From the NCBI GenBank assembly GCA_021838945.1, contig JAKCCH010000004.1, positions 1-63,363 on the forward strand: 63,363 nt of DNA, given 5' to 3'. Positions 7,201 to 43,597 of this stretch are shown piece by piece. A program made the position numbers and the translations under genes. The stretch's first letter is position 1. Every line of letters begins with the position of its first letter. This DNA comes from Actinomycetes bacterium (lineage in GTDB: Bacteria; Actinomycetota; Acidimicrobiia; Acidimicrobiales; Bog-793). The notes below the pieces were generated by a model that ran no database searches, was not told where the DNA came from, and worked only from the letters and a program-made list of their open reading frames with translations.

Positions 7201-7632
7201 GCTCCACACGTAGAAGTCGCGGTAGCTGCTCCCCGCCGGGGCGGTGCGCGCCCGCTGGAACCACGGGTGCTGGTCGCTCGTGTGGTTGAGCACGAGCTCG
7301 GTGATCACTCGCATGTCCCGCCGGTGAGCCTCATCGACGAAGCGCCTGAAGTCCGAGAGCGTCCCGTAGTCAGGGTGGATCGCGGTGTAGTCGGCGATGT
7401 CGTAGCCGTCGTCTTTCAGCGGTGACGGGTAGAACGGCAGGAGCCAGAGGGCGGTCACGCCGAGCTGGTGGAGGTAGTCGAGGTGCTGGGTGAGCCCTGG
7501 GAAGTCGCCCCGGCCGTCGCCATTCGAGTCGGCGAATGCCCTGACGTGCAGCTCGTAGATGACAGCGTCCTTGTACCAGTCCTGCTGCGCGCCCGGGACC
7601 AAGCTCGAGGCGCTGCTGCTCCAGGTGCTCAC
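4237..7632 (-). CDS. treS: Trehalose synthase-maltokinase (TreS-Pep2) fusion
   Basis: N-terminal GH13 TreS (WYKDAVIYELHVRAF, FYSHQPDLN, RLDAVPYL, AEANQWPED, FLRNHDELTLEMV). C-terminal maltokinase (EQSNTS, HGDLHLGQVL, DFEGEP, SPMRDVAGMLRS). Confidence 0.96.
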   Translation of the reverse strand: MSTWSSSASSLVPGAQQDWYKDAVIYELHVRAFADSNGDGRGDFPGLTQHLDYLHQLGVTALWLLPFYPSPLKDDGYDIADYTAIHPDYGTLSDFRRFVDEAHRRDMRVITELVLNHTSDQHPWFQRARTAPAGSSYRDFYVWSDTPDRYQQARIIFQDFEQSNWAWDPVAKAYFWHRFYSHQPDLNFRNPAVRRAVLRTVDFWLRLGVDGLRLDAVPYLYEREGTDCENLPETHDFLRELRRHVDDRFAGRMLLAEANQWPEDASAYFGKGDECHMAFHFPLMPRLFMGLRMEDRFPIIDILQQTPETPAGTQWALFLRNHDELTLEMVTDEERDYMYRSYARDPVMRINLGIRRRLAPLLQFHRQKSELMHGLLMSMPGTPVLYYGDEIGMGDNVYLGDRNSVRTPMQWNADRNAGFSSANPQRLFLPVNIDPQCHFESVNVAAQLDNPDSLLRWLRRLIALRKRHPVFGRGRMDFVASDNPRVLAFVRHDEDERVLVVANLSRFAEYVELDLSSHRGVVPRELFGQRAFPMIGELPYLVTLGPHSFYWLSLGSPSAETQTATVSLPSLRVPQQWWRVLDGEANRRVEAALPTILRTRRWFGAKDRRIQTASIVTRVPLPLEDEVERAEIVVVNVEYLDGEPDRYLVAMAHLTGEPASDIAQDHPEAVLAFTTGPGGEPGLLIDAHFRPAFGKALVELVAGRRRRHADAGYRITGIPVAARATELATVQTGPRAPARVSAAEQSNTSIVVGDPDGTRAIVKTLRRLEPGPHPEIELGRLLTSVGATVAPLLGSIELLPGQGPGTAIAVIHEFVQNESDAWTATLRAAANFLEQHVEEGGGTYVPLEPIRPGGFHAGIRSLVIPEIVETEMAESLGAAELLGRRTAELHVALSSPAGGSAFRPEPVTPMTQRSAYQSMRSAARRTLSLARQRASLLNERDRALLDDLQANEEVLLQAFQGVLEIRSGCRIRVHGDLHLGQVLFTGRDFLFVDFEGEPARTFAERRLKRSPMRDVAGMLRSYQYAGESAVDDVVSRGVLQGDDPAGIEAYDRTANRWAYWASVAFLQGYLPIADETGLLPEPEDFAVDLRAHLLEKALYEMRYELGNRPEWVHVPLLGLRSLLHADRQDGP

Positions 7633-9614
7633 GCCAGGCCCTCTACGGCGAGGAGGTGCGCAGGGATGCCGGATGGGTCGAGCTTGACGAAGTTGGTGCC
7701 CGCCTCCCAGACGTAGCGCTCGTCGTTCAGGGCATCGTGGACGATGAATCGGTCTCCGTCGGAGAGGCCGAGCGCACCGGGGTCGAGCGACACGAAGCCG
7801 GACTGGGTCCAGCGCCAGTCGAGGTTGACCACTCCGAGGACGGTGTCGCCCAGGCGACGCTTCGACCAGCAGATGATCCGGTCGTTGTCACAATGGTGGA
7901 ACGTGAGCCCTTCGTTGCGCTGGAGAGCCGGGTGCGCGTGCCGCGCGGCGTTGATGCGGGCGACGAGCTCCGCGAGCGAAGAGGGGTCGCCCAGGTCGTG
8001 ATGGTGCACCTGGTACTTCTCGGAGTCCTTGTACTCCTCGGATCCCGGGCCGGCCGGCTCGTCCCACTGGAGCTCGTACACAGGTCCGTAGATCCCGTAG
8101 TTCGAGGACAGCCCGGCTGCGAGGACGAGGCGCGCGATGAAGCTCGGCCTCCCACCGTGCTGGAGGCTGCGCGCCAGGATGTCGGGGGTGTTCGGCCACA
8201 CGTTCGGTCGGAAGTACTTGACACCTGGTTCCGAGGTGAGCTCGCGGAAGTACTCCTCGATCTCCCATCGCTCGTCGCGCCATGTGAAGTACGTGTAGGA
8301 CTGGTCGAACCCCGCCTTCGCGAGGCGGTGCATCACCTTCGGGCGGGTGAACGCCTCGGACAGGAAGATGACACCCGGGGTCTCGCGCTTGATCTCGGCG
8401 AGGAGCCACTCCCAGAAGGCGAAGGGCTTGGTGTGCGGGTTGTCGACCCGAAACACCCGGACCCCCAGGGCCACCCAGAACGCCACGACGTCCGCCAGCG
8501 CCTGCCACAGCCCATCGCGGTCGCGGGTGTGGAAGTCGATGGGGTAGATGTCCTCGTAGCGTTTCGGCGGGTTCTCGGCACAGGCGATCGTGCCGTCGGG
8601 GCGATGCCGGAACCAGTCGGGGTGCTCCGTCACCCATGGGTGGTCGGGCGAGCACTGGAACGCGAGGTCGAGCGCCACCTCGATGCCGCGGCGCTTCGCC
8701 TCGGCGACGAGGAGCTCGAAGTCCTCGAACGTGCCGAGCTCGGGCGCGATCGCGCTGTGGCCGCCGGCAGGCGAGCCGATCGCCCATGGGCTCCCGACGT
8801 CTTCCGGCCCGCCGACGGGGGAGTTGTCCCGGCCCTTGCGGGCCGTGACCCCGATCGGGTGGATGGGCGGCAGGTAGAGCACGTCGAAACCGAGACGGGC
8901 GATGTAGTCGAGCCGCTGCACGACGTCGTGGAGCGTGCCCGGGCGGCGCGGGTCCGGGCTCGCCGAGCGCGGGAAGAGCTCGTACCACGACGAGAAGGCG
9001 GCGATCGGCGGTGAGGCGAATCCTTTCAAGCGGAAGGTCGTCGTGCCTTCGTCAGGAAGCGGGCGGCGGGCAAGGGCAGTCCCAGCCGCGTCGACGGCAT
9101 CGAGCAGCTCGCCCGAGATGGCCTCTGTCGCCGCGCGCTCGGCGAGAGCCTGCACCATCTCCGCGTCCTCGTCGCCGGTACTCACGAGGCCCTCGGCGGC
9201 CTCCGCGAGGAGCCGGTGCGCCGTCTCACGTTCGAAGGGATCGACGGTGGCGGCGTTGAGACGGCGACGCGCATCGCGCGCCCAGGTCGCGAGGTCGTCG
9301 ACGTGGGCGGCGATCTCGATCTCGAAGGGACCGTCCGCCGTCGGCGTGACGGTGCCGGCGAAGGCGTCGTTGCCGAGGTTCTGCATGGGCGCCTCGAGCC
9401 AGCGGCGGGCTCCGACCCGGCGGAAGCGGACGAGCGCACGGACGAGGTCGTGACCATGCGTGAAGACGTCGGCTCTCACGGCAAGCGGGTCGCCGATGAT
9501 CGCCTTCGAGGGAAAGCGCCCGCCGTCGACGAGCGGCTCGGGTCGCTCGACGACCACTGCCGGAGAGGGTGGCGGCATGTAACGGATCACGGTCATGCGT
9601 TCCTCCGGAGCCAC
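7629..9614 (-). CDS. glgE: Alpha-1,4-glucan:maltose-1-phosphate maltosyltransferase
   Basis: Motifs SSWYELFPRS, YLPPIHPIG, GSPWAIG, AENPPKRYEDI, FRVDNPHTKP, FLSEAFTRP, PNTPDIL. Confidence 0.97.
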   Translation of the reverse strand: MAPEERMTVIRYMPPPSPAVVVERPEPLVDGGRFPSKAIIGDPLAVRADVFTHGHDLVRALVRFRRVGARRWLEAPMQNLGNDAFAGTVTPTADGPFEIEIAAHVDDLATWARDARRRLNAATVDPFERETAHRLLAEAAEGLVSTGDEDAEMVQALAERAATEAISGELLDAVDAAGTALARRPLPDEGTTTFRLKGFASPPIAAFSSWYELFPRSASPDPRRPGTLHDVVQRLDYIARLGFDVLYLPPIHPIGVTARKGRDNSPVGGPEDVGSPWAIGSPAGGHSAIAPELGTFEDFELLVAEAKRRGIEVALDLAFQCSPDHPWVTEHPDWFRHRPDGTIACAENPPKRYEDIYPIDFHTRDRDGLWQALADVVAFWVALGVRVFRVDNPHTKPFAFWEWLLAEIKRETPGVIFLSEAFTRPKVMHRLAKAGFDQSYTYFTWRDERWEIEEYFRELTSEPGVKYFRPNVWPNTPDILARSLQHGGRPSFIARLVLAAGLSSNYGIYGPVYELQWDEPAGPGSEEYKDSEKYQVHHHDLGDPSSLAELVARINAARHAHPALQRNEGLTFHHCDNDRIICWSKRRLGDTVLGVVNLDWRWTQSGFVSLDPGALGLSDGDRFIVHDALNDERYVWEAGTNFVKLDPSGIPAHLLAVEGLA

Positions 9615-36741: not shown

Positions 36742-37947
36742 ATGGACTTCGAACTGTCATCGGTGGCAGAGGAGTACCGCAAGCGGCTGCTCGAGTTCAT
36801 GGACGAGCTCGTCTACCCGAACGAGCAGACCGCCGTGGAGCAGATCGCCGAGTCCGGGAACCCTCACCACCATCCCGAGGTCGTGGAGGACCTGAAGCAA
36901 GCGGCCCGCGGTCGCGGCCTGTGGAACCTGTTCCTCCCGCACGAGACGAAGTGGACCAAGGGACTCTCGAACCTCGACTACGCGCCGCTGGCGGAGATCA
37001 CCGGCCGCTCGCCGATCGCACCCGAGGCGCTCAACTGCTCGGCGCCCGACACGGGGAACATGGAGATCCTCACGATGTTCGGGACTAGCGAGCAGCAGGA
37101 GGAGTGGCTGTACCCGCTGTTGGAGGGCGAGATCCGATCGTGTTTCGCCATGACCGAGCCTGCGGTCGCGAGCTCGGACGCCACGAACATCACCACGTCC
37201 ATCCGGACAGACGGCGACGACTACGTCATCGACGGCCGGAAGTGGTGGATCTCGGGCGCTTCGGACGAGAGGTGCAGGATCTCGATCGTCATGGGCAAGA
37301 CGGACCCGAGCGCCCCACCACATCTCCAGCAGTCGATGGTGCTCGTCCCGATGGACACACCCGGGGTGAGGGTGGTCCGCAACCTGACGGTGTTCGGCTA
37401 CGCCTCACAGGAGGGGCATTGCGAGATCGAGCTCGACTCCGTGCGGGTCCCGCGGCGGAACCTCCTCGGGGAGGAGGGGGGAGGATTCGCCATCGCCCAG
37501 GCGCGGCTCGGCCCCGGTCGGATCCACCACTGCATGCGCGCCATCGGGGCCGCCGAGCGGGCGCTCGAGATCATGTGCCGCCGCGTGCTCGACCGCCGTG
37601 CGTTCGGGGGCCCGCTCGCCGACCAGGGTGTGGTGCAGCAGTGGATCGCCGAGTCTCGCCTCGAGATCGACCAGGCGCGCTGGTACGTGCTCGCCACAGC
37701 CGATGCGATGGACCGCCACGGGAACAAGGCGGCCCGTACCGAGATCGCCGGCATCAAGGTCCTCGCGCCGAACGTCGCCCTCCGGGTGGTCGATCGCGCC
37801 ATCCAGGCGTGCGGTGGCGCGGGTGTCGGCCCTGACCTCCCGCTCGCTCGCATGTACGCGTCGCTTCGCACGCTTCGCATCGCGGATGGTCCCGACGAGG
37901 TGCACCGCCGGACTGTCGCCCGAAGGGAGCTGCGCAAGTACTCCTGA
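36742..37947 (+). CDS. Acyl-CoA dehydrogenase (ACAD10/11-like, FadE2-like)
   Basis: Motifs [64 protein letters not shown]. Confidence 0.95.
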
Positions 37948-37967
37948 GGCGGGCCCGCTCGGGCATG

Positions 37968-38035
37968 GCCGGCGGACCGGGCATCAGAGTCGCGCCGGCG
38001 AGGGATCGGCGCGGGGGCTGGCCCGGTCCGCCGGC
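37968..38035. terminator. Long GC-rich hairpin between convergent genes (probable bidirectional terminator)
   Basis: Perfect 15-bp arms GCCGGCGGACCGGGC / GCCCGGTCCGCCGGC, with an inner CGCGCCG/CGGCGCG helix. Confidence 0.65.
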
Positions 38036-38038
38036 GAT

Positions 38039-39229
38039 CTAGGTGGGGGGCTCCAGCAGGGGCAGAGGGTGAGGGCGCCCGAGGAGGTAGCCCTGTCCGA
38101 AGGAGGCGCCGAGGTCGCGCAAGGCCTCGAGCTCCCCGGGAGTCTCGATGCCCTCGGCTACGACGGTCGAGCCGATCTCGGCCGCGAACGCCACGATGGC
38201 GGCGCCGAGCGCGCGTCTTGTTGAGCTGACGTCGATGCCACGGGTGAGCTCCGTGTCGAGCTTGATCATCTCCGGGCGCAGCCGGACGATGTGCTGCATG
38301 CTCGACCAGCCAGCACCGGCGTCGTCGACCGCGATCCGCACACCGGAGCGACGGAGCGCTCCGATGCCTTCCTCGATCCTCTCGTAGTCATCCACGCGGC
38401 TGTGCTCGGTCACCTCGAGGACGATCCGGTCCGCCGGGTAGCTCCGAAGGAGCCGTTCGAGCTCGTGCGAGACGAGCGTGGCGGGGGAGAGGTTCACCGA
38501 GAGGAACGCGTGCGAGGGAACGTGGTCGAGGTGCCCGAGTGCGGTCTCGAGTGCGATCATGTCGAGGGGCAGCTGGAGCCCGACGTCCGCTGCTCGCTTG
38601 AACCAGTGGTCCGGCGGCATCGGCGGGTACAGGCGGAAGCGGGCGAGTGCCTCCGCGCCGACGAGCTTCCCGCTTCGAAGGTCGATGATCGGCTGGAGCA
38701 GCATGTCGAGATTGCCCGTCTCGACCACCCCGTTCAGGACGGCGATGGTCGCGTCGCGCTCCCGGTTCTGTCGCTCGGCCTCCTCGTGGACTACGGCGAG
38801 CTCGAGCTCGCGGTGGTAGCGCTCGGTGATGTCCTCGGAGATCCCGAGGATGAACCGGGCTTCTCCGTCGTCGCCGAAGATCGGGATCCTCTTCGTGTGC
38901 AGCACCCGCCGCCCGCGATAGCGGGTGGCCACGAACTCGGCTTCGATCTCTATCATGCGACGCTCGGCGACGACGCGGCGATCGATCGCGGCGAGGAAGT
39001 CAGCATCCTCCTTCGGGAGGATGTCGTGGTCCCGAAGCCCGACGATCTCGGCCCGTGCGTATCCGAGGAGCTCTTCGGCGGCTCGGTTCAGCCGTACGAA
39101 GCGCAGGTCGTCTGCGGACTTCACGAAGACCATGTCGGGGATGTTCTCGACGATCTGCTCGAGCATGCCGGCCTGGTCGCCGCTGTATCCGTTCACGCGC
39201 GGGTTCTCGGGCTCGACGGCCGTCGTCAT
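38039..39229 (-). CDS. PAS-EAL c-di-GMP phosphodiesterase
   Basis: PAS/PAC domain (ENIPDMVFVK...GISEDITER). EAL domain with EALAR, SVNLS, EVTE, DDAGAG, IKLD, AEGIE and GQGY. No GGDEF domain. Confidence 0.92.
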   Translation of the reverse strand: MTTAVEPENPRVNGYSGDQAGMLEQIVENIPDMVFVKSADDLRFVRLNRAAEELLGYARAEIVGLRDHDILPKEDADFLAAIDRRVVAERRMIEIEAEFVATRYRGRRVLHTKRIPIFGDDGEARFILGISEDITERYHRELELAVVHEEAERQNRERDATIAVLNGVVETGNLDMLLQPIIDLRSGKLVGAEALARFRLYPPMPPDHWFKRAADVGLQLPLDMIALETALGHLDHVPSHAFLSVNLSPATLVSHELERLLRSYPADRIVLEVTEHSRVDDYERIEEGIGALRRSGVRIAVDDAGAGWSSMQHIVRLRPEMIKLDTELTRGIDVSSTRRALGAAIVAFAAEIGSTVVAEGIETPGELEALRDLGASFGQGYLLGRPHPLPLLEPPT

Positions 39230-40710
39230 GAAGCAACCGCCGCCGGATCGGCGACGACCGCTTCGACGATGACGGCGCCGGCGGCGTCATCACGGATCAA
39301 GAAGACGAACGGGTGGTTGAAGGCGACGGCGACGGCATCGCGGCCGCCTGACACGAGTGTCGAGACAGAGCCGGTCCCACCGCCGGCGTTCGTGCCGTGC
39401 TCGTCGACACGGATGGCGACGCTCTGGCCGACCATGTCGAGAGCCGTGGGCGTGCTGGTGATGCCGCCGAAGTCGGCGCCGGTGGAGAAGGCCTGGCGCA
39501 CGCCGGCCGCTCGAAGCGCGCCGTTGCAGGATGACGCCGAGCCGAGAGACAAGCGCGGGAGCGCGAGATCGACAGTCGCCTGACGCAGCCCGGCCTCGAG
39601 GTGCGACAGCGAGGTCGGCGTCCACGAGTCGAGCATCGTCGTGAGCGACCCGGTCTCCGGCTCGATCGCGAGCGCAGAGAAACGCCCACCGGCATACGGC
39701 AGCTCGACGGCCCGCATGCCGTCGAGAGCGGCGGTCCGGAGGACGCCGCTCCAATGCATCGTCGGGACCGAGACGGTTGCGCCGCTCGCGAGGTGGAACA
39801 CGGCGGAGTGCGTCCGGCCGGGATCGAAGGCGAGCGCGCGTGACCAGCTGGCGTCGAAGTGGAACGCGTTGGCGAGCACGAACGCGGTCCTCCGAGTGAT
39901 CGATCCCGGCGGCAGCAGCGGCGGGACCCGCAGGTGGCTCACCGAGCGCACCCACGAGTTGATCGTCCTGGTCGTTGCCGCCGGGCGACCGGCGAAGTCC
40001 GCCTCCCAGATCCCTTCGCCGAAGTATCGAGCGAGGGCGTCGAGATAGGTGCCGTGCACGTGGAGGGTGCGCTCGAGGAAGAGGTAGTTGGCCTGCTCCA
40101 GCTGGACGTGGGACACCCGCTGATCGATCGTCAGCTGTTGCGAGAGCGCGTTCCAGAGCTGAGCCTGAGCAGAGGCAGACGTGCCGCCCATCCCGAGCGC
40201 CGTCGCGATCTGCGAGCCCGTCTGCCCGCGCGCTCCGAGCTCCAGCTGGACGAGGACCTCTCCGAGGCTGCTCGGGACGAGCACGACATTGCGGGTGGTT
40301 CCCGCGCTCCGATAGAGGCTGGCCGTCGTGGCGGTGAGCAGGGAGAGATCCGACCGCGCCGCCTGCCTCGCGTCCGCGAGGACGCGCGGGGTCGTCAACC
40401 GCCTCATGTGCGCTGCCAGCTCGCCGAGGAGGGGAGCATGACCGCTCGCTGCTCGACTCTGCTGCTGGCGCGCCGGTGAGGGATGGGACAGCGGGACGAG
40501 TGCTGTCACGAGCGCCGCGACAGCTGCGACCGCCGCCGCAGCTGTCGCGGCACGCCGGCGGCGGATGCGACCGGTTCCCCGCGCTCTCACGAGCTCCGGC
40601 GAGGGGAGCGCCGGAGCGAGTTCCGATGACCATGCCTCGAGTGCCCGCCGGATGCGGGCGTCCGCCACGCTGTTGCGGTCGTCAGGCGTCCTGCGTCCGC
40701 TCGCAGTCAT
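39226..40710 (-). CDS. Predicted anti-sigma factor-serpin fusion (cytoplasmic N-domain, TM helix, extracytoplasmic serpin)
   Basis: N-terminus RIRRALEAW...P...VRARG..RIRRRR plus a TM helix. Serpin motifs LGARGQT, INSWV, VLANAFHF..SW, VPTM, ELPY, ADFGGI, VDEHGT, FNHPFVFLIRD, V.DP. Start at ATG 40710. Confidence 0.85.
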   Translation of the reverse strand: MTASGRRTPDDRNSVADARIRRALEAWSSELAPALPSPELVRARGTGRIRRRRAATAAAAVAAVAALVTALVPLSHPSPARQQQSRAASGHAPLLGELAAHMRRLTTPRVLADARQAARSDLSLLTATTASLYRSAGTTRNVVLVPSSLGEVLVQLELGARGQTGSQIATALGMGGTSASAQAQLWNALSQQLTIDQRVSHVQLEQANYLFLERTLHVHGTYLDALARYFGEGIWEADFAGRPAATTRTINSWVRSVSHLRVPPLLPPGSITRRTAFVLANAFHFDASWSRALAFDPGRTHSAVFHLASGATVSVPTMHWSGVLRTAALDGMRAVELPYAGGRFSALAIEPETGSLTTMLDSWTPTSLSHLEAGLRQATVDLALPRLSLGSASSCNGALRAAGVRQAFSTGADFGGITSTPTALDMVGQSVAIRVDEHGTNAGGGTGSVSTLVSGGRDAVAVAFNHPFVFLIRDDAAGAVIVEAVVADPAAVAS

Positions 40711-41200
40711 CTGTCGCCTCCAGCGCGTCGAGAGCGGCCGAGAGGTGGAGGCGTCCACGGCTCAGCCATGACTTCACGGTGCCGATGGGGACGCCCATCT
40801 CCGTCGCGATCTCGTGACTCGTGAGGCCGAGCAGATAGTGGAGAACGAGGGCCTGCCGATGCTCGGGTGACAGGGTCGAGAGAGCGGCTGCCAGCTCGAG
40901 CCGGGAGCGGTCGCCGGGATCCTCCTCGACGACCTGCTGAGGCAAGGGTTGCTCGCTGAAGCGCCGTCTCCGCCTGTTCGAGTTCTTGGCGAGGTTGAAG
41001 GCAACTCGCCTCACCCATGCGTGCGGGTCGTCGAGGTGCGCCACGCGCTCCCAACGCGTCCATGCCCGGACATATGCCTCTTGGACGACATCGAGGGCTT
41101 CGGCGGGGTCGTTCGTGAAGGCGAAGATCTGGCGCGCGAGACGCGCGGATCCGTCGCGATAGAAGGCGTCGAAGCCTTCCGTGGAACTCGCCCCCAACAC
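40682..41200 (-). CDS. ECF RNA polymerase sigma factor (actinobacterial SigE-like)
   Basis: Region 2 DVVQEAYVRAW.RW...AWVRRVA.N. Region 4 LS.EHRQALVLHY..GL...EIA.EMG.PIGTVKS.LSRGR. Confidence 0.93.
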   Translation of the reverse strand: MLGASSTEGFDAFYRDGSARLARQIFAFTNDPAEALDVVQEAYVRAWTRWERVAHLDDPHAWVRRVAFNLAKNSNRRRRRFSEQPLPQQVVEEDPGDRSRLELAAALSTLSPEHRQALVLHYLLGLTSHEIATEMGVPIGTVKSWLSRGRLHLSAALDALEATDDCERTQDA

Positions 41201-41214
41201 TCCCCACGGTATAC

Positions 41215-41245
41215 ATCACACACGAGCGCCCCAAAAGGTTGCACC
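41215..41245 (-). promoter_or_regulatory. Putative ECF autoregulatory promoter
   Basis: Minus strand reads GTGCAACCTTTT...; GCAAC-N17-TGTG resembles the AAC...GT ECF promoter layout, just upstream of the sigma start. Confidence 0.5.
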
Positions 41246-41249
41246 TCAG

Positions 41250-41260
41250 AAAAAAAAAAA
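41250..41260. repeat. A11 homopolymer in the sigma/protease intergenic region
   Basis: 11 consecutive A residues in very GC-rich DNA. Confidence 0.9.
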
Positions 41261-41410
41261 TCTAGAGGTTTTCAGGGACTTTTCCCGGTGTCATGCTCGC
41301 AGTGCGGACGCACGCGGGGAGCTCCGGGGGTCAGCAGTGTGGCGCTCCATGCTGAAGGTCTGCCGAGGCTGTCGCGGGGGTCAGCGAACCTACAACGCAC
41401 AGGAGGGCAG

Positions 41411-42760
41411 ATGTCTCGCCATCAACTCGTCCGACCCCTCGGCTCTGCTGCCGCCGCCTTTGCCTGCATGGCGTTGTCGGTGTCGCTGCTCGCCTCGCCC
41501 GCCGGGGCACAGGAGCAGGGGGTCAGGGCGGCATCGCTGTTGCACCGGCGCTTGCCTGCGGCGGAGGTGTCGGCCACTCCGAGAGAGGTGGCGGCGGCAT
41601 CCGCGCTCGTGACGCCGGGCGACCCGCTCGGGATGTGGGAGCAGCGCATGTCGAGGGACTTCCCGGACACCTATGGAGGGCTGTACGTGGACGCGTCGGG
41701 CAACCTCGTGATCCCGACCGTCGGTGCGGCCCGAGGCTTGCGGGCATGGGCGAAGGCCAACCTCTCCGCAGTCGTGACCCAGTACCTGTCCGACGCCCTT
41801 GGTACCGGCGCGCTGCTCGGCCGGCGCACGTCTGCGGGAACCCTCGGGACCAGCCGGGCCGCCGGGGCACCGGCGCTCACCTTCACGACGGCGCGGAGGA
41901 GCCTGGCGGACCTCACGGTTCTCAAGGCCGACATCCTTGCAAACCGGCGTTTTGCCGAGGCAGGCGTCGTCGGTGCCGGGATCGACGTGAAGAACGGGGC
42001 CGTCTCGGTCACGACGACAGGCGGTTCGATCGACGCGACCCTTCGAGCGGACTACGGCTCAGAGGTGGAGACCACCGCTGCCACCAGTTCCTCGCTCGAC
42101 GCGTCGCGCACGTCCGACACGCCGCCATGGAACGGCGGCGACATGATCGGGTCCTCCTCGGGGACGCTCTGCACCTTGGGTTTCGGCATCCACGACACCG
42201 CCGGCGACACCTACTCGCTCACGGCCGGCCACTGCGGTTACAACACCTGGTACAACGTCCCGCCAAGCAGAGGCTCGCTCGATGACAGCACCCGTGTCGG
42301 CACTACGGTCTCCGGCTCGAAGTCCACCTGGGGTGTCGATGCACAGCTCGTCAGGGACAGCTCGTCGTGCATCTCCTGGGGTTCGGGCACGACGCGGTTG
42401 TTCATCACCGGTGCCGCGGATCCGCCGCAAGGCGCGACGATCTGGTCGGAGGGTTCGGTCACCGGTCAGGAGAGCGGCCGTGTTGTCACCTACGACTGGA
42501 GCGGCAACGTCGGCGGCGAGCAGCTCAGCAACCTCGACCTCACGACAGCCGCCCCGCAGCCCGGCGACAGCGGTGGCCCGGTGGTCTACCCGACCGGCTT
42601 CGGCCCCCTCGCCGGCGGCTCTGTCGTCGGCCTCATCGTCTACGCAGACGGCACGTCCGTCGGCGTGACCCAACTCATCGATGCAGAGATCTTCGACTAC
42701 TCGGTACGGCTCGGCACGAGCCTCGCGGTGAACACCTCGGCCAACGGCTACAGCTGTTGA
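41411..42760 (+). CDS. Secreted S1 (chymotrypsin-clan, alpha-lytic/streptogrisin-like) serine protease with pro-region
   Basis: RBS AGGAGG and a signal peptide ending PAGA. Catalytic motifs CTLGF...TAGHC (His), DAQLV (Asp) and GDSGGP (Ser). Confidence 0.9.
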   Translation: MSRHQLVRPLGSAAAAFACMALSVSLLASPAGAQEQGVRAASLLHRRLPAAEVSATPREVAAASALVTPGDPLGMWEQRMSRDFPDTYGGLYVDASGNLVIPTVGAARGLRAWAKANLSAVVTQYLSDALGTGALLGRRTSAGTLGTSRAAGAPALTFTTARRSLADLTVLKADILANRRFAEAGVVGAGIDVKNGAVSVTTTGGSIDATLRADYGSEVETTAATSSSLDASRTSDTPPWNGGDMIGSSSGTLCTLGFGIHDTAGDTYSLTAGHCGYNTWYNVPPSRGSLDDSTRVGTTVSGSKSTWGVDAQLVRDSSSCISWGSGTTRLFITGAADPPQGATIWSEGSVTGQESGRVVTYDWSGNVGGEQLSNLDLTTAAPQPGDSGGPVVYPTGFGPLAGGSVVGLIVYADGTSVGVTQLIDAEIFDYSVRLGTSLAVNTSANGYSC

Positions 42761-42775
42761 CCGAGCGCCGGCGGA

Positions 42776-43597
42776 TCAGTCGAGGCCGCCTGTGGCGACG
42801 GCGCCGAACGCGTCGGCGGCCGCTCGGGTGAGTGGACCCGGGGCGTGCGGCAGCTCGCGCCCGTCGAGGAGCGCGATCGGCTGGACGCCACGGGTCGTCG
42901 ACGTCAAGAACGCTTCGTCGACATCGCTCAGGCGATCACGCGGCAGGTCCCGTTCGACCGCGCCGGTGATCTCGATCACCAGCCCTCGGGTGACGCCCGC
43001 CAGGCAGCCGGCCGAGAGGGGAGGCGTGAGGAGGTCGCCTCCGATGCCGAGGAAGATGTTCGTGCCGGTTCCTTCGCAGACGTTCCCCGCCGTATTGCAC
43101 CAGAGCGCCTCTGTTGCGCCTCGCTCTGCCGCATATGCCAGGGCGACGACGTTCTCTGCGTAGGAGATCGTCTTGGCACCTGCGAGAGGCCCGCGCTCGT
43201 TCTTCGGCCACGGCGCCACGACGACCACGGCCGGTCCGGCCGGCGGGGCGGCAGCCTCGCAGGCGATCACGACCGTCGGGTCGGCTTTGCCCCTCGCCGA
43301 TCCGAGCCCCGCGTTCCCTCCTGTCACCGTGATCCGGAGCTTGCCGGCCCGGCAGCCGGCTTCGTCGACGACCATGCGCGCCGCCCTCTCGAGCTCCTCG
43401 CCAGGTGGCAGGGGCAGGCCGATGGCGGAGGCGGAGCAGGCGAGCCGCTCGAGGTGGCGGCTGAGGGCAAAAGGTCGACCGTCGCGGATGGCGATGCTCT
43501 CGAAGACGCCGTCCCCCGTCACGAGGCCGTGGTCGAACACCGACACGGTCGCTTCGGCGGCGTCCAGCATCACGCCGTTCACGTAGACCGAGGGCAC
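42776..43597 (-). CDS. PLP-dependent aminotransferase class IV (ADC lyase / D-amino-acid / branched-chain family)
   Basis: Motifs DHGL..GDGVFE, HLERL, KTISY, EGTGTN, LAGVTR, EAFLTSTTR. Confidence 0.9.
   Translation of the reverse strand: MPSVYVNGVMLDAAEATVSVFDHGLVTGDGVFESIAIRDGRPFALSRHLERLACSASAIGLPLPPGEELERAARMVVDEAGCRAGKLRITVTGGNAGLGSARGKADPTVVIACEAAAPPAGPAVVVVAPWPKNERGPLAGAKTISYAENVVALAYAAERGATEALWCNTAGNVCEGTGTNIFLGIGGDLLTPPLSAGCLAGVTRGLVIEITGAVERDLPRDRLSDVDEAFLTSTTRGVQPIALLDGRELPHAPGPLTRAAADAFGAVATGGLD

Follow-up and report, generated by a model that had tools for sequence, protein, structure and literature searches.

We analyzed a 63,363-nt stretch of DNA from a bacterium in the order Acidimicrobiales (contig JAKCCH010000004.1 of GenBank assembly GCA_021838945.1); we will refer to this whole stretch as the window. 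At one locus in the window, three overlapping genes on the minus strand encode an extracytoplasmic function (ECF) sigma factor, a serpin with a putative transmembrane (TM) anchor, and a PAS-EAL protein, and a divergent gene on the plus strand encodes an apparently secreted serine protease. An earlier interpretation, made from the letters of this DNA (the sequence-only reading), had described this arrangement and had proposed that the serpin is an anti-sigma factor that senses proteases. Pfam matches, gene overlaps, and translations bear out all four genes and their positions. We think that the sigma factor and the serpin are probably a sigma/anti-sigma pair whose sensor ectodomain is a serpin of the inhibitory type (we would put the probability at roughly 55%).

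The sigma factor gene (40682..41200, minus strand) encodes a protein of 172 amino acids with sigma-2 and sigma-4 domains (Sigma70_r2, E = 5e-10, and Sigma70_r4_2, E = 1.6e-17, in Pfam) and no other domains. It scores 144.6 bits against the "SigE family" of NCBIfam (TIGR02983; the cut-off is 141.55), and its best matches in the Protein Data Bank (PDB) are M. tuberculosis SigL (E = 3.6e-15) and then SigE and SigH. By its domain content and its size, this protein belongs to the ECF (group 4) sigma-70 factors, so the identity given by the sequence-only reading holds. The 3' end of the sigma gene, including the stop codon, shares 29 nt with the start of the serpin gene (39226..40710, minus strand). 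GGAGG is located 6 nt 5' of the serpin's ATG, which is at 40710. The stop codon of the serpin gene in turn overlaps the start codon of the PAS-EAL gene (38039..39229, minus strand) in the shared cATGAc, which confirms the ATGA coupling that had been described. The protease gene (41411..42760, plus strand) starts 210 bp from the start of the sigma gene, on the opposite strand.

The serpin protein has 494 amino acids. Residues 131-494 (39229..40320; this and the following segments are on the minus strand) are a serpin domain: they match PF00079 from Pfam with E = 5e-65 (positions 9-370 of the 370 in the profile) and align end to end with conserpin (PDB:5cdx; phmmer, E = 2.2e-37). The sequence-only reading had called the product of 39226-40710 a full serpin, pending a search with profile models, and it is one. 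Ahead of this domain are a tail (residues 1-54; 40549..40710) with a helix-like stretch (DARIRRALEAW), then LPSPELVRARG, and then RIRRRR; a hydrophobic segment of 21 residues, rich in alanine and valine (residues 55-75, AATAAAAVAAVAALVTALVPL; 40486..40548); and a linker (residues 76-130; 40321..40485). The Kyte-Doolittle hydropathy of the hydrophobic segment reaches 2.25 over 19 residues. The positive cluster lies on its N-terminal side, and there is no lipobox cysteine, unlike in the serpins that lack a sigma factor. The arginine cluster, the hydropathy, and the missing lipobox suggest a single TM helix with the N-terminus inside and the C-terminus outside, in which case the linker and the serpin would be extracytoplasmic and the tail would be cytoplasmic. 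We therefore read the N-terminus as the sequence-only reading did, as a short, putatively cytoplasmic segment with a poly-arginine stretch and a TM-like helix before the serpin. (The window's hydrophobic segment is alanine-rich at its putatively cytoplasmic end.) Among 49 relatives with the same architecture, the region before the hydrophobic stretch has 26-73 residues, with a median of 42. At the tail-and-TM loci from the genome survey described below, the hydrophobic stretches reach 2.0-2.75 over 19 residues, more than most signal peptides tabulated with them.

Across genomes, this sigma factor and this kind of serpin go together. Of 41 related genomes (including the window's own), 8 have a serpin match, and at 5 of the 7 loci from relatives the gene just before the serpin encodes a sigma homologue. 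These relatives are uncultured Acidimicrobiaceae or Acidimicrobiales. A wider scan with one genome per species, using the best 80 of 222 relatives, gave 79 loci (some contigs are shared with the 41-genome set). We classified these serpins by their N-termini. In type I serpins, a long tail and an arginine cluster precede a strongly hydrophobic stretch, and there is no lipobox; type II serpins have a short signal peptide, mostly with a lipobox cysteine. There are 29 loci of type I and 50 of type II, the latter in Dormibacterota, Chloroflexota, Ilumatobacteraceae, Kitasatospora, Streptomyces, and other hosts. Upstream sequence is available for 28 type I loci (locus L041 lies at the edge of its contig). 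In 22 of them, an intact sigma gene immediately precedes the serpin gene on its strand; a remnant that encodes only the C-terminal 40-60 residues of a sigma factor is left at 4 (L031, L032, L034, and L059); and no sigma gene was found at the other 2 (L035 and L046). At the 49 type II loci with at least 900 nt of upstream sequence (of the 50), there is no adjacent sigma gene. A scan of metagenomes yielded another 80 loci, of which 5 are type I and 75 are type II. The sigma gene is complete in L104 and L105, truncated by the edge of the contig in L106, and reduced to a remnant in L107 (whose tail is identical to that of L032); L115 has no upstream sequence. Again, there is no adjacent sigma gene at the 50 metagenomic type II loci with at least 900 nt upstream (of the 75). 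The linkage between the sigma factor and the type I serpin is far beyond chance. The sequence-only reading had staked its proposal on a linkage of serpin homologs to ECF genes, and this is what we found: an intact sigma gene at 22 of 28 tail-and-TM loci as compared to 0 of 99 type II loci.

The two genes are also tightly packed. At every locus that was measured, the stop codon of the sigma gene and the start of the serpin gene overlap, by 1-68 nt (mostly 17), and GGAGG sequences that resemble Shine-Dalgarno sites precede the start codons. The genes around the pair vary by locus and are mostly metabolic or housekeeping genes, and we found no other candidate anti-sigma gene that is conserved beside the pair among the selected neighbours that we scanned. 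From gene order, the conserved core of the system is a translationally coupled pair of sigma factor and TM-serpin. (One Acidimicrobiaceae assembly carries two tandem copies of the pair, at L028:2441-7224, and the tails and the promoter motif do not differ between them.)

The architecture recurs in a larger set of serpins. A profile of 30 type I proteins matched 55,006 serpins (E up to 0.001) among 1.84 billion cluster representatives. Of the best 150 representatives (from clusters at 50% identity), 49 have the same architecture, which we defined as a tail of 26-73 residues, at least 3 arginines or lysines just before the hydrophobic stretch, no lipobox, and a length of 380-520. In the 10 clusters that we looked up, the public names of such proteins are only "serpin family protein" or "serpin B". 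We also noticed that many of the high-scoring representatives (P0024, P0034-P0037, P0042, P0052, and others) have 750-1375 amino acids and 2-3 serpin stretches, as in tandem serpin domains, and some of these look eukaryotic by their N-termini.

In a tree of the serpin domains (FastTree, 170 rows, with the N-termini removed), the 36 type I rows lie on one side of a branch with support of 92. The type I trait needs just 1 change on this tree, while shuffled traits need 33.0 changes on average, and none of 500 shuffles needs as few. The type I clade adjoins lipoprotein serpins of Dormibacterota and Chloroflexota and of Streptomycetaceae. Type I loci without an intact sigma gene are nested among those that have one, so the sigma factor was lost secondarily.

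In a tree of 40 sigma factors, the 21 that are linked to serpins need 3 changes, and forcing them together costs 46.3 log-likelihood units (approximately unbiased test, p = 1.1e-5). By this tree, the serpin-linked sigma factors fall into at least two ECF lineages. Group A, which includes the window's sigma factor, shares a clade (starred in the tree) with 7 sigma factors that are not linked to serpins, and group B lies apart. We considered whether serpins were fused independently in groups A and B, and we rejected this idea: the tree of serpin domains puts all of the serpins with a tail and a TM helix on one side.

The tail seems to follow the lineage of the sigma factor. The tails of the 49 representatives align to a pattern of an acidic start, h-x-x-L-x-x-L, W/Y-x-x-P-x-x-[LIV]-R-x-R-[AG], and an arginine cluster. 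Group A tails have the first helix-like part, which group B tails lack. L184 has a sigma factor that is nested in group A and is not linked to a serpin; the +1 protein beside it carries a BNR/Asp-box propeller. Nevertheless, the tail of that protein resembles the A-type serpin tails: the mean of its top five Smith-Waterman scores is 59.8, as compared to 35.8 +/- 3.4 for shuffled sequences (z = 7.1; 0 of 200 shuffles were as high). Other +1 tails give lower values (L185, z = 3.7; L101, 3.2; L188, 2.3), and 6 of the 10 (L187, L189, L097, L098, L099, and L100) are indistinguishable from shuffled sequences, with z under 2. The window's own genome has paralogous sigma factors of the SigE type (on contigs C115, C133, C7, C54, and C137; L097-L101), and the +1 proteins beside them also have a tail, arginines, and a TM stretch, with ectodomains that are BNR/Asp-box, Kelch, or unassigned. 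Some further ECF sigma factors in this genome have classical HxxxCxxC partners.

The linker (about 55 residues) has an identity of 0.33-0.58 within groups. Between the membrane segment and the serpin fold, at alignment columns of about 110-125, there is a conserved juxtamembrane segment that reads RIGSAYEL in group B, GPAIQLV in group A2, and LLGELAAH in the window. This segment may dock on the body of the serpin, as the N-terminal extension of tengpin does.

We then looked for promoters. The motif TGCA[AG][CT]C-N12-18-GTGT[CGT] lies directly 5' of the sigma gene in all 9 group-A loci, with 2 off-target matches in 104,890 nt. In the window, this candidate ECF-type promoter of the operon runs from 41243 to 41217 on the minus strand, with TGCAACC and GTGTG on either side of a spacer. 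Three of these loci (the window, L018, and L025) have a T-rich tract just before the motif. (The window's tract is the A11 run at 41250..41260, between the divergent protease and sigma genes; it is a T-run on the sigma factor's strand, just upstream of the candidate -35 element; the tracts of L018 and L025 are at the equivalent position. In four other assemblies, X2, X3, X5, and X6, the run is one base shorter, as the letter at 41250 is absent.) Group B has another motif, GTCAAC-N15-20-C[CT]TT[TA][AG], which is found in 9 of 20 loci and ends 5-18 nt before the start codon. Within the loci, the sigma-type promoter lies only before the sigma gene, save for 3 stray matches. These sites make it a candidate for autoregulation: the sigma factor may drive its own operon. 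No sigma-70 promoter turned up when we scanned 37700-43000, and the terminator scan gave a single candidate, located in the serpin gene; this is within the expectation from shuffled sequence.

Two variants of the promoter region stand out. In L032 (5356-5639; L107 is the same), most of the sigma gene has been deleted, and the group-B motif and the last 50 codons of the sigma gene precede an intact serpin gene, which would require a sigma factor supplied in trans. In five loci from one subclade of group B (L037, L039, L042, L044, and L045), a protein of about 320-360 amino acids with no Pfam match is encoded directly upstream of the sigma factor, and these loci lack the group-B motif. One transcript may cover that gene and the pair there.

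Inhibitory serpins have small uncharged residues at positions P14-P9 of the hinge, which permit the reactive-centre loop to insert. The window's hinge reads G-T-N-A-G-G-G-T, with small residues from P15 to P8 and no charged residue or proline, and the hinges of its relatives read GT[TDE]A[AST][AS][AV][TS]. (For the family as a whole, the hinge is GT[TDEN]A, three small residues, and [TS].) By this rule the hinge is of the inhibitory type, and the protein is a candidate protease inhibitor. The distal loop is the least conserved part in groups A1 and A2 (identity of 0.29-0.43). In the window, the hinge and the loop are at about residues 437-462 (EHGTNAGGGTGSVSTLVSGGRDAVAV; 39325..39402, minus strand). 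The P1 residue is ambiguous: it is valine or leucine if counted from the hinge, and arginine in the alignment to conserpin. A valine or leucine at P1 would suit the specificity of enzymes like alpha-lytic protease.

The divergent protease could be an enzyme of this kind. Its precursor has 449 amino acids. It is similar to a streptogrisin-type proteinase in PDB (2sfa; phmmer, E = 1.2e-13) and to alpha-lytic protease (E = 1.3e-3), and its match to Pfam's Trypsin is short of the cut-off (E = 0.025). None of the 3 orthologues differs at the catalytic residues (His274, Asp310, and Ser387). The N-terminus is Sec-like by eye, and the N-terminal part of about 230 residues matches no family. We conclude that the protein is a pre-pro precursor of the S1E type (streptogrisin- or alpha-lytic-like). 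The spacing of about 210 bp, the divergent orientation, and the intact triad are all as the sequence-only reading had them. The orthologues are also divergent from the pair, in L018 (54% identity), L025 (40%), and L104 (42%). Thus all 4 loci in the subclade that includes the window keep the protease, even though the identity of the serpin falls to 35-39% there. Synteny of an ECF sigma factor, a TM-serpin, and an S1 protease, which the sequence-only reading had suggested searching for, holds within this subclade, and the protease is outside the core that is conserved across the family.

Other proteases appear near the pair in other loci. In L024 (6260-10213) and L027 (7468-11424), an S8 subtilase of 1317 amino acids (Peptidase_S8) starts 10 nt after the serpin's stop codon, a spacing that places it within the operon of the pair. 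Three genes upstream of the sigma factor in L025, L030, L040, and L053, there is an S53 sedolisin-like protein with a Pro-kumamolisin activation domain and TIG repeats (L030:1-2670). These four loci span both serpin groups, and the placement may reflect shared synteny or a functional link. L019, L022, L023, L026, L029, and L047 have no protease among the neighbours that were scanned, whose genes are housekeeping or unrelated.

The PAS-EAL protein has 396 amino acids and is predicted to be cytoplasmic. It matches EAL from Pfam (PF00563) with E = 3.2e-52, over all but the first seven positions of the profile (8-236 of 236), and PAS_4 with E = 4.6e-20. Its translation contains the catalytic EAL, N, E, DD, K, and E motifs, so by domain and motifs it appears to be a c-di-GMP phosphodiesterase of the EAL kind. 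The window's genome has 10 matches to GGDEF as well. A PAS-EAL gene follows the serpin in three places only: the window; L018, at 7500-8635 (56-75% identity); and G009:C132 (L017), where a C-terminal fragment of a serpin is followed by a PAS-EAL protein of 66% identity. (The match in L018 is split over three frames, because of assembly frameshifts or because the gene is decaying.) In L025 and L104, there is no PAS-EAL gene or other recurrent gene downstream of the serpin. The coupled PAS-EAL gene that the sequence-only reading made part of the system is there in the window and its nearest relatives, and it is not in the conserved core.

Beyond these four genes, the locus is flanked by genes of housekeeping type (an acyl-CoA dehydrogenase-like ORF and an aminotransferase-like ORF, judging from their translations). 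The assembly that contains the window is 81% complete, at 3.04 Mb. Other assemblies, built from mine-drainage and sediment metagenomes, carry the same 4.7 kb on single contigs, with 5-6 base differences from the window and no change to the frame of any gene. No RNA data set was among those listed as containing this stretch. A metagenome scan for relatives of the window's subclade found no further four-gene locus, and the best identity was 39% (L104).

To put the pair in context, we compared it to known systems. ECF classification 2.0 (PMC7826278) treats a protein as a putative anti-sigma factor if it is encoded at +1, has a TM helix, and has a region on the cytoplasmic side that is conserved. 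The TM-serpin has all three features, and so it would count as a putative anti-sigma factor. It also resembles those actinobacterial groups in which, as described there, the +1 protein spans the membrane once and its cytoplasmic part, conserved and specific to the group, matches nothing in Pfam (PMC7826278). The closest functional analogy is SigV-RsiV of Bacillus subtilis: according to the sections cited, RsiV is a single-pass anti-sigma factor whose ectodomain directly recognizes a hydrolase that attacks the envelope, and its stepwise proteolysis brings about activation (PMC4183432, PMC5014341, PMC6066255). RsiV is not a serpin, though, and it is the binding of lysozyme that permits its cleavage by signal peptidase. 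The system in the window would differ in having a protease inhibitor of the suicide-substrate type as its ectodomain and a tail from outside the known anti-sigma families. In RpoE-RseA/DegS/RseP and SigW-RsiW, there is likewise a membrane anti-sigma factor beside an autoregulated ECF sigma factor, and the sigma factor is released by site-1 and then site-2 cleavage (PMC8103513, in the part cited). But the site-1 proteases of those systems are dedicated membrane enzymes, and their class I anti-sigma domains have about 80-90 residues, while tails of the window's type have 35-55. In size, and we liken them by size only, these tails are nearer to the short class II type, such as CnrY and NepR (PMC8103513).

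If the serpin is an anti-sigma factor, the system might work as follows. At rest, the cytoplasmic tail of 35-55 residues would bind the sigma factor and keep it at the membrane, and the inhibitory-type serpin, held by the single TM helix, would inhibit proteases at the cell surface. A serine protease, either the S1E neighbour or a foreign one, would attack the reactive-centre loop or the linker. The ectodomain would be converted or removed, and the remnant would become a substrate of signal peptidase and/or a site-2 protease. (The window's genome encodes site-2 proteases of the M50 family. The GSA that group B conserves directly behind its hydrophobic stretch, and the alanines at the putatively cytoplasmic end of the window's stretch, may bear on this step.) The freed sigma factor would drive its own operon from the conserved ECF-type promoter and give more surface serpin, and here it would also lower c-di-GMP. 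The release of the sigma factor by protease attack is proposed by analogy to regulated intramembrane proteolysis and to RsiV, and each step (the binding of the sigma factor, the topology, the inhibitory activity, the signal, and the proteolytic relay) is likewise a prediction. A fuller version would have a transmembrane serpin receptor in which loop insertion sprung by a protease, or a juxtamembrane site that it exposes, releases the ECF sigma factor, with the system wired to the S1E protease and to the breakdown of c-di-GMP. We hold this version tentatively, as possible but not probable.

Could the serpin be an effector and nothing more? It would then be an inhibitor that is anchored to the surface or exported, by a signal anchor or a long signal of the Tat or Sec type; it would not bind the sigma factor, which would be controlled in some other way. 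We consider this unlikely. It would explain why the tail belongs to no known anti-sigma family and why six loci with a tail and a TM helix lack an intact sigma gene. Also, in the portion of PMC8012564 that we cite, a serpin operon of B. breve is induced by proteases via a two-component system and not via the serpin itself. However, the tail-and-TM form is strictly paired with the sigma factor, and relatives that lack a sigma factor all have short signals of the lipoprotein or Sec type. In the 26-73 residues that precede the hydrophobic stretch, there is a conserved motif beyond the positive charges, and the hydrophobic stretch itself exceeds most signal peptides in hydropathy, as noted above. 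A tail that follows the sigma lineage, and that is shared with the BNR-propeller protein of the nearest sigma relative, would be hard to reconcile with a mere export signal, and among the neighbours scanned the pair has no other conserved candidate for an anti-sigma factor beside it. It is quite unlikely, in our view, that the serpin is an anti-sigma factor but not a bait for foreign proteases. The neighbouring protease (S1E here, S8 in L024 and L027) might be a dedicated partner, so that consumption of the serpin would report on the cell's own secreted protease (for homeostasis or self-immunity), or the serpin fold might be a non-inhibitory sensor of a ligand. The S1E protease that stays divergent in 4 of 4 loci of the subclade, in spite of the divergence of the serpins, would fit with this, as would the subtilase in the operons of L024 and L027 and a loop that is longer than conserpin's. 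Yet most of the sigma-serpin loci that we scanned have no protease gene within about 5 kb (among selected neighbours), and no promoter of the sigma factor's type precedes the S1E gene. The hinge is of the inhibitory type throughout, and the distal loop varies as it does in inhibitors that track changing targets.

We return to the reading that we prefer, a sigma/anti-sigma pair with a serpin as its sensor. In favor of the serpin anti-sigma factor that the sequence-only reading proposed, we have the conserved and coupled pair, an N-terminal type that is tied to the sigma factor, a tail that appears to follow the sigma lineage, a hinge of inhibitory type, and a conserved promoter; the protease and the PAS-EAL protein, which it had included, fall outside the core. 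Several observations weigh against this reading. Residues 1-130 match no anti-sigma family in Pfam (E up to 5), residues 1-56 match nothing in PDB (E up to 10), and the tail in group B has only about 35 residues. By sequence, the tail is not a recognized class I anti-sigma domain (zf-HC2, RskA, and similar). Profiles of the tails (77 tails, or 56 A-type tails), searched against all 18,350 ORFs from the window's genome and the 10 +1 proteins, recovered the protein of the window (1e-5 and 1.6e-6) and nothing else; L184, at 12.6 bits, was at background level. Any homology of the tail to other +1 proteins thus comes only from the Smith-Waterman shuffle test. The change between A and B tails is a single event, which is weak as statistics. 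Two comparisons speak for the reading, with caveats. Identity between sigma factors tracks that between tails (rho = 0.77) more closely than that between serpin domains (0.59), and the values within group B are 0.39 and 0.01, but the pairs of loci are related and not independent, and the first 6-10 codons of the tail share DNA with the sigma gene. Similarly, where the sigma gene is lost or truncated, the match of the tail to its consensus is 0.59, as compared to 0.75 where it is intact (0.84 and 0.88 for the serpin domain), but this is for 5 and 4 loci from the same synteny group in related genomes, with the consensus taken from the loci with an intact sigma gene. On the side of the serpin as effector, the arginine pairs and the stretch rich in alanine and glycine look like twin-arginine signals, and group B, but not group A, has a small-x-small motif ("GSA") after the hydrophobic stretch (by eye); 6 of the 28 type I loci lack an intact sigma gene; and Bifidobacterium longum has a TM-anchored and cell-associated serpin without a link to a sigma factor, as far as the cited part of PMC8012564 describes it.

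The remaining difficulties concern the loop and the regulon. Between the hinge and the aligned arginine, the loop has about 4 residues more than that of conserpin. A longer reactive-centre loop can weaken inhibition by a serpin. We know of no precedent for cleavage of the loop that signals to the cytoplasmic side. A scan of the window's genome for promoters of the sigma factor's type gave 5 matches, as compared to 3 in the control of reversed sequence, which is no enrichment, so the regulon can be read only as the genes of the operon itself. It would comprise the sigma factor and the serpin, the PAS-EAL protein (in the window and L018), and the 1317-residue S8 subtilase (in L024 and L027). No sigma-type promoter lies before the S1E protease or any other scanned neighbour, and the idea from the sequence-only reading that the sigma factor may induce the protease loses its footing.

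How new would such a system be? The bifidobacterial serpins are the nearest precedent on the serpin side. In the sections of PMC8012564 that we cite, the serpin of B. longum (BL0108) is also actinobacterial and is retained on the cell by an N-terminal TM anchor, and the serpin operon of B. breve responds to proteases. Those serpins are under two-component or carbohydrate control, and the same sections link no ECF sigma factor to them; the ECF pair of PMC10059941 is at another locus. The sequence-only reading knew of no serpin-based anti-sigma factor, and we found none in the literature that we searched: no paper joins a serpin to an anti-sigma role, and the papers that mention both a serpin and an ECF or other sigma factor are unrelated. 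The main text of ECF classification 2.0 has 0 occurrences of "serpin" or "protease inhibitor" (PMC7826278), although its supplementary tables could list such a group. As far as gene content and domain structure can tell, then, the new element would be a serpin as the sensor domain within a known kind of ECF/anti-sigma system, which we consider slightly favored by the evidence.

Pairs of ECF sigma and anti-sigma factors are a major route of signalling in bacteria, and for most groups the signal is unknown. Because a serpin reacts irreversibly and only with active proteases, the signal for this system is unusually easy to guess and to test. If the fuller version of the mechanism holds, bacteria would have their first signalling receptor built on a serpin, and no ECF system before this one would have been shown to respond to proteases directly. 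If protease sensing by the pair is confirmed, it could provide a compact and orthogonal switch from protease to transcription for synthetic biology. It would also give prokaryotic serpins a new physiological role, and it would be a new principle by which cells sense proteases at their surface, whether hostile or self-made.

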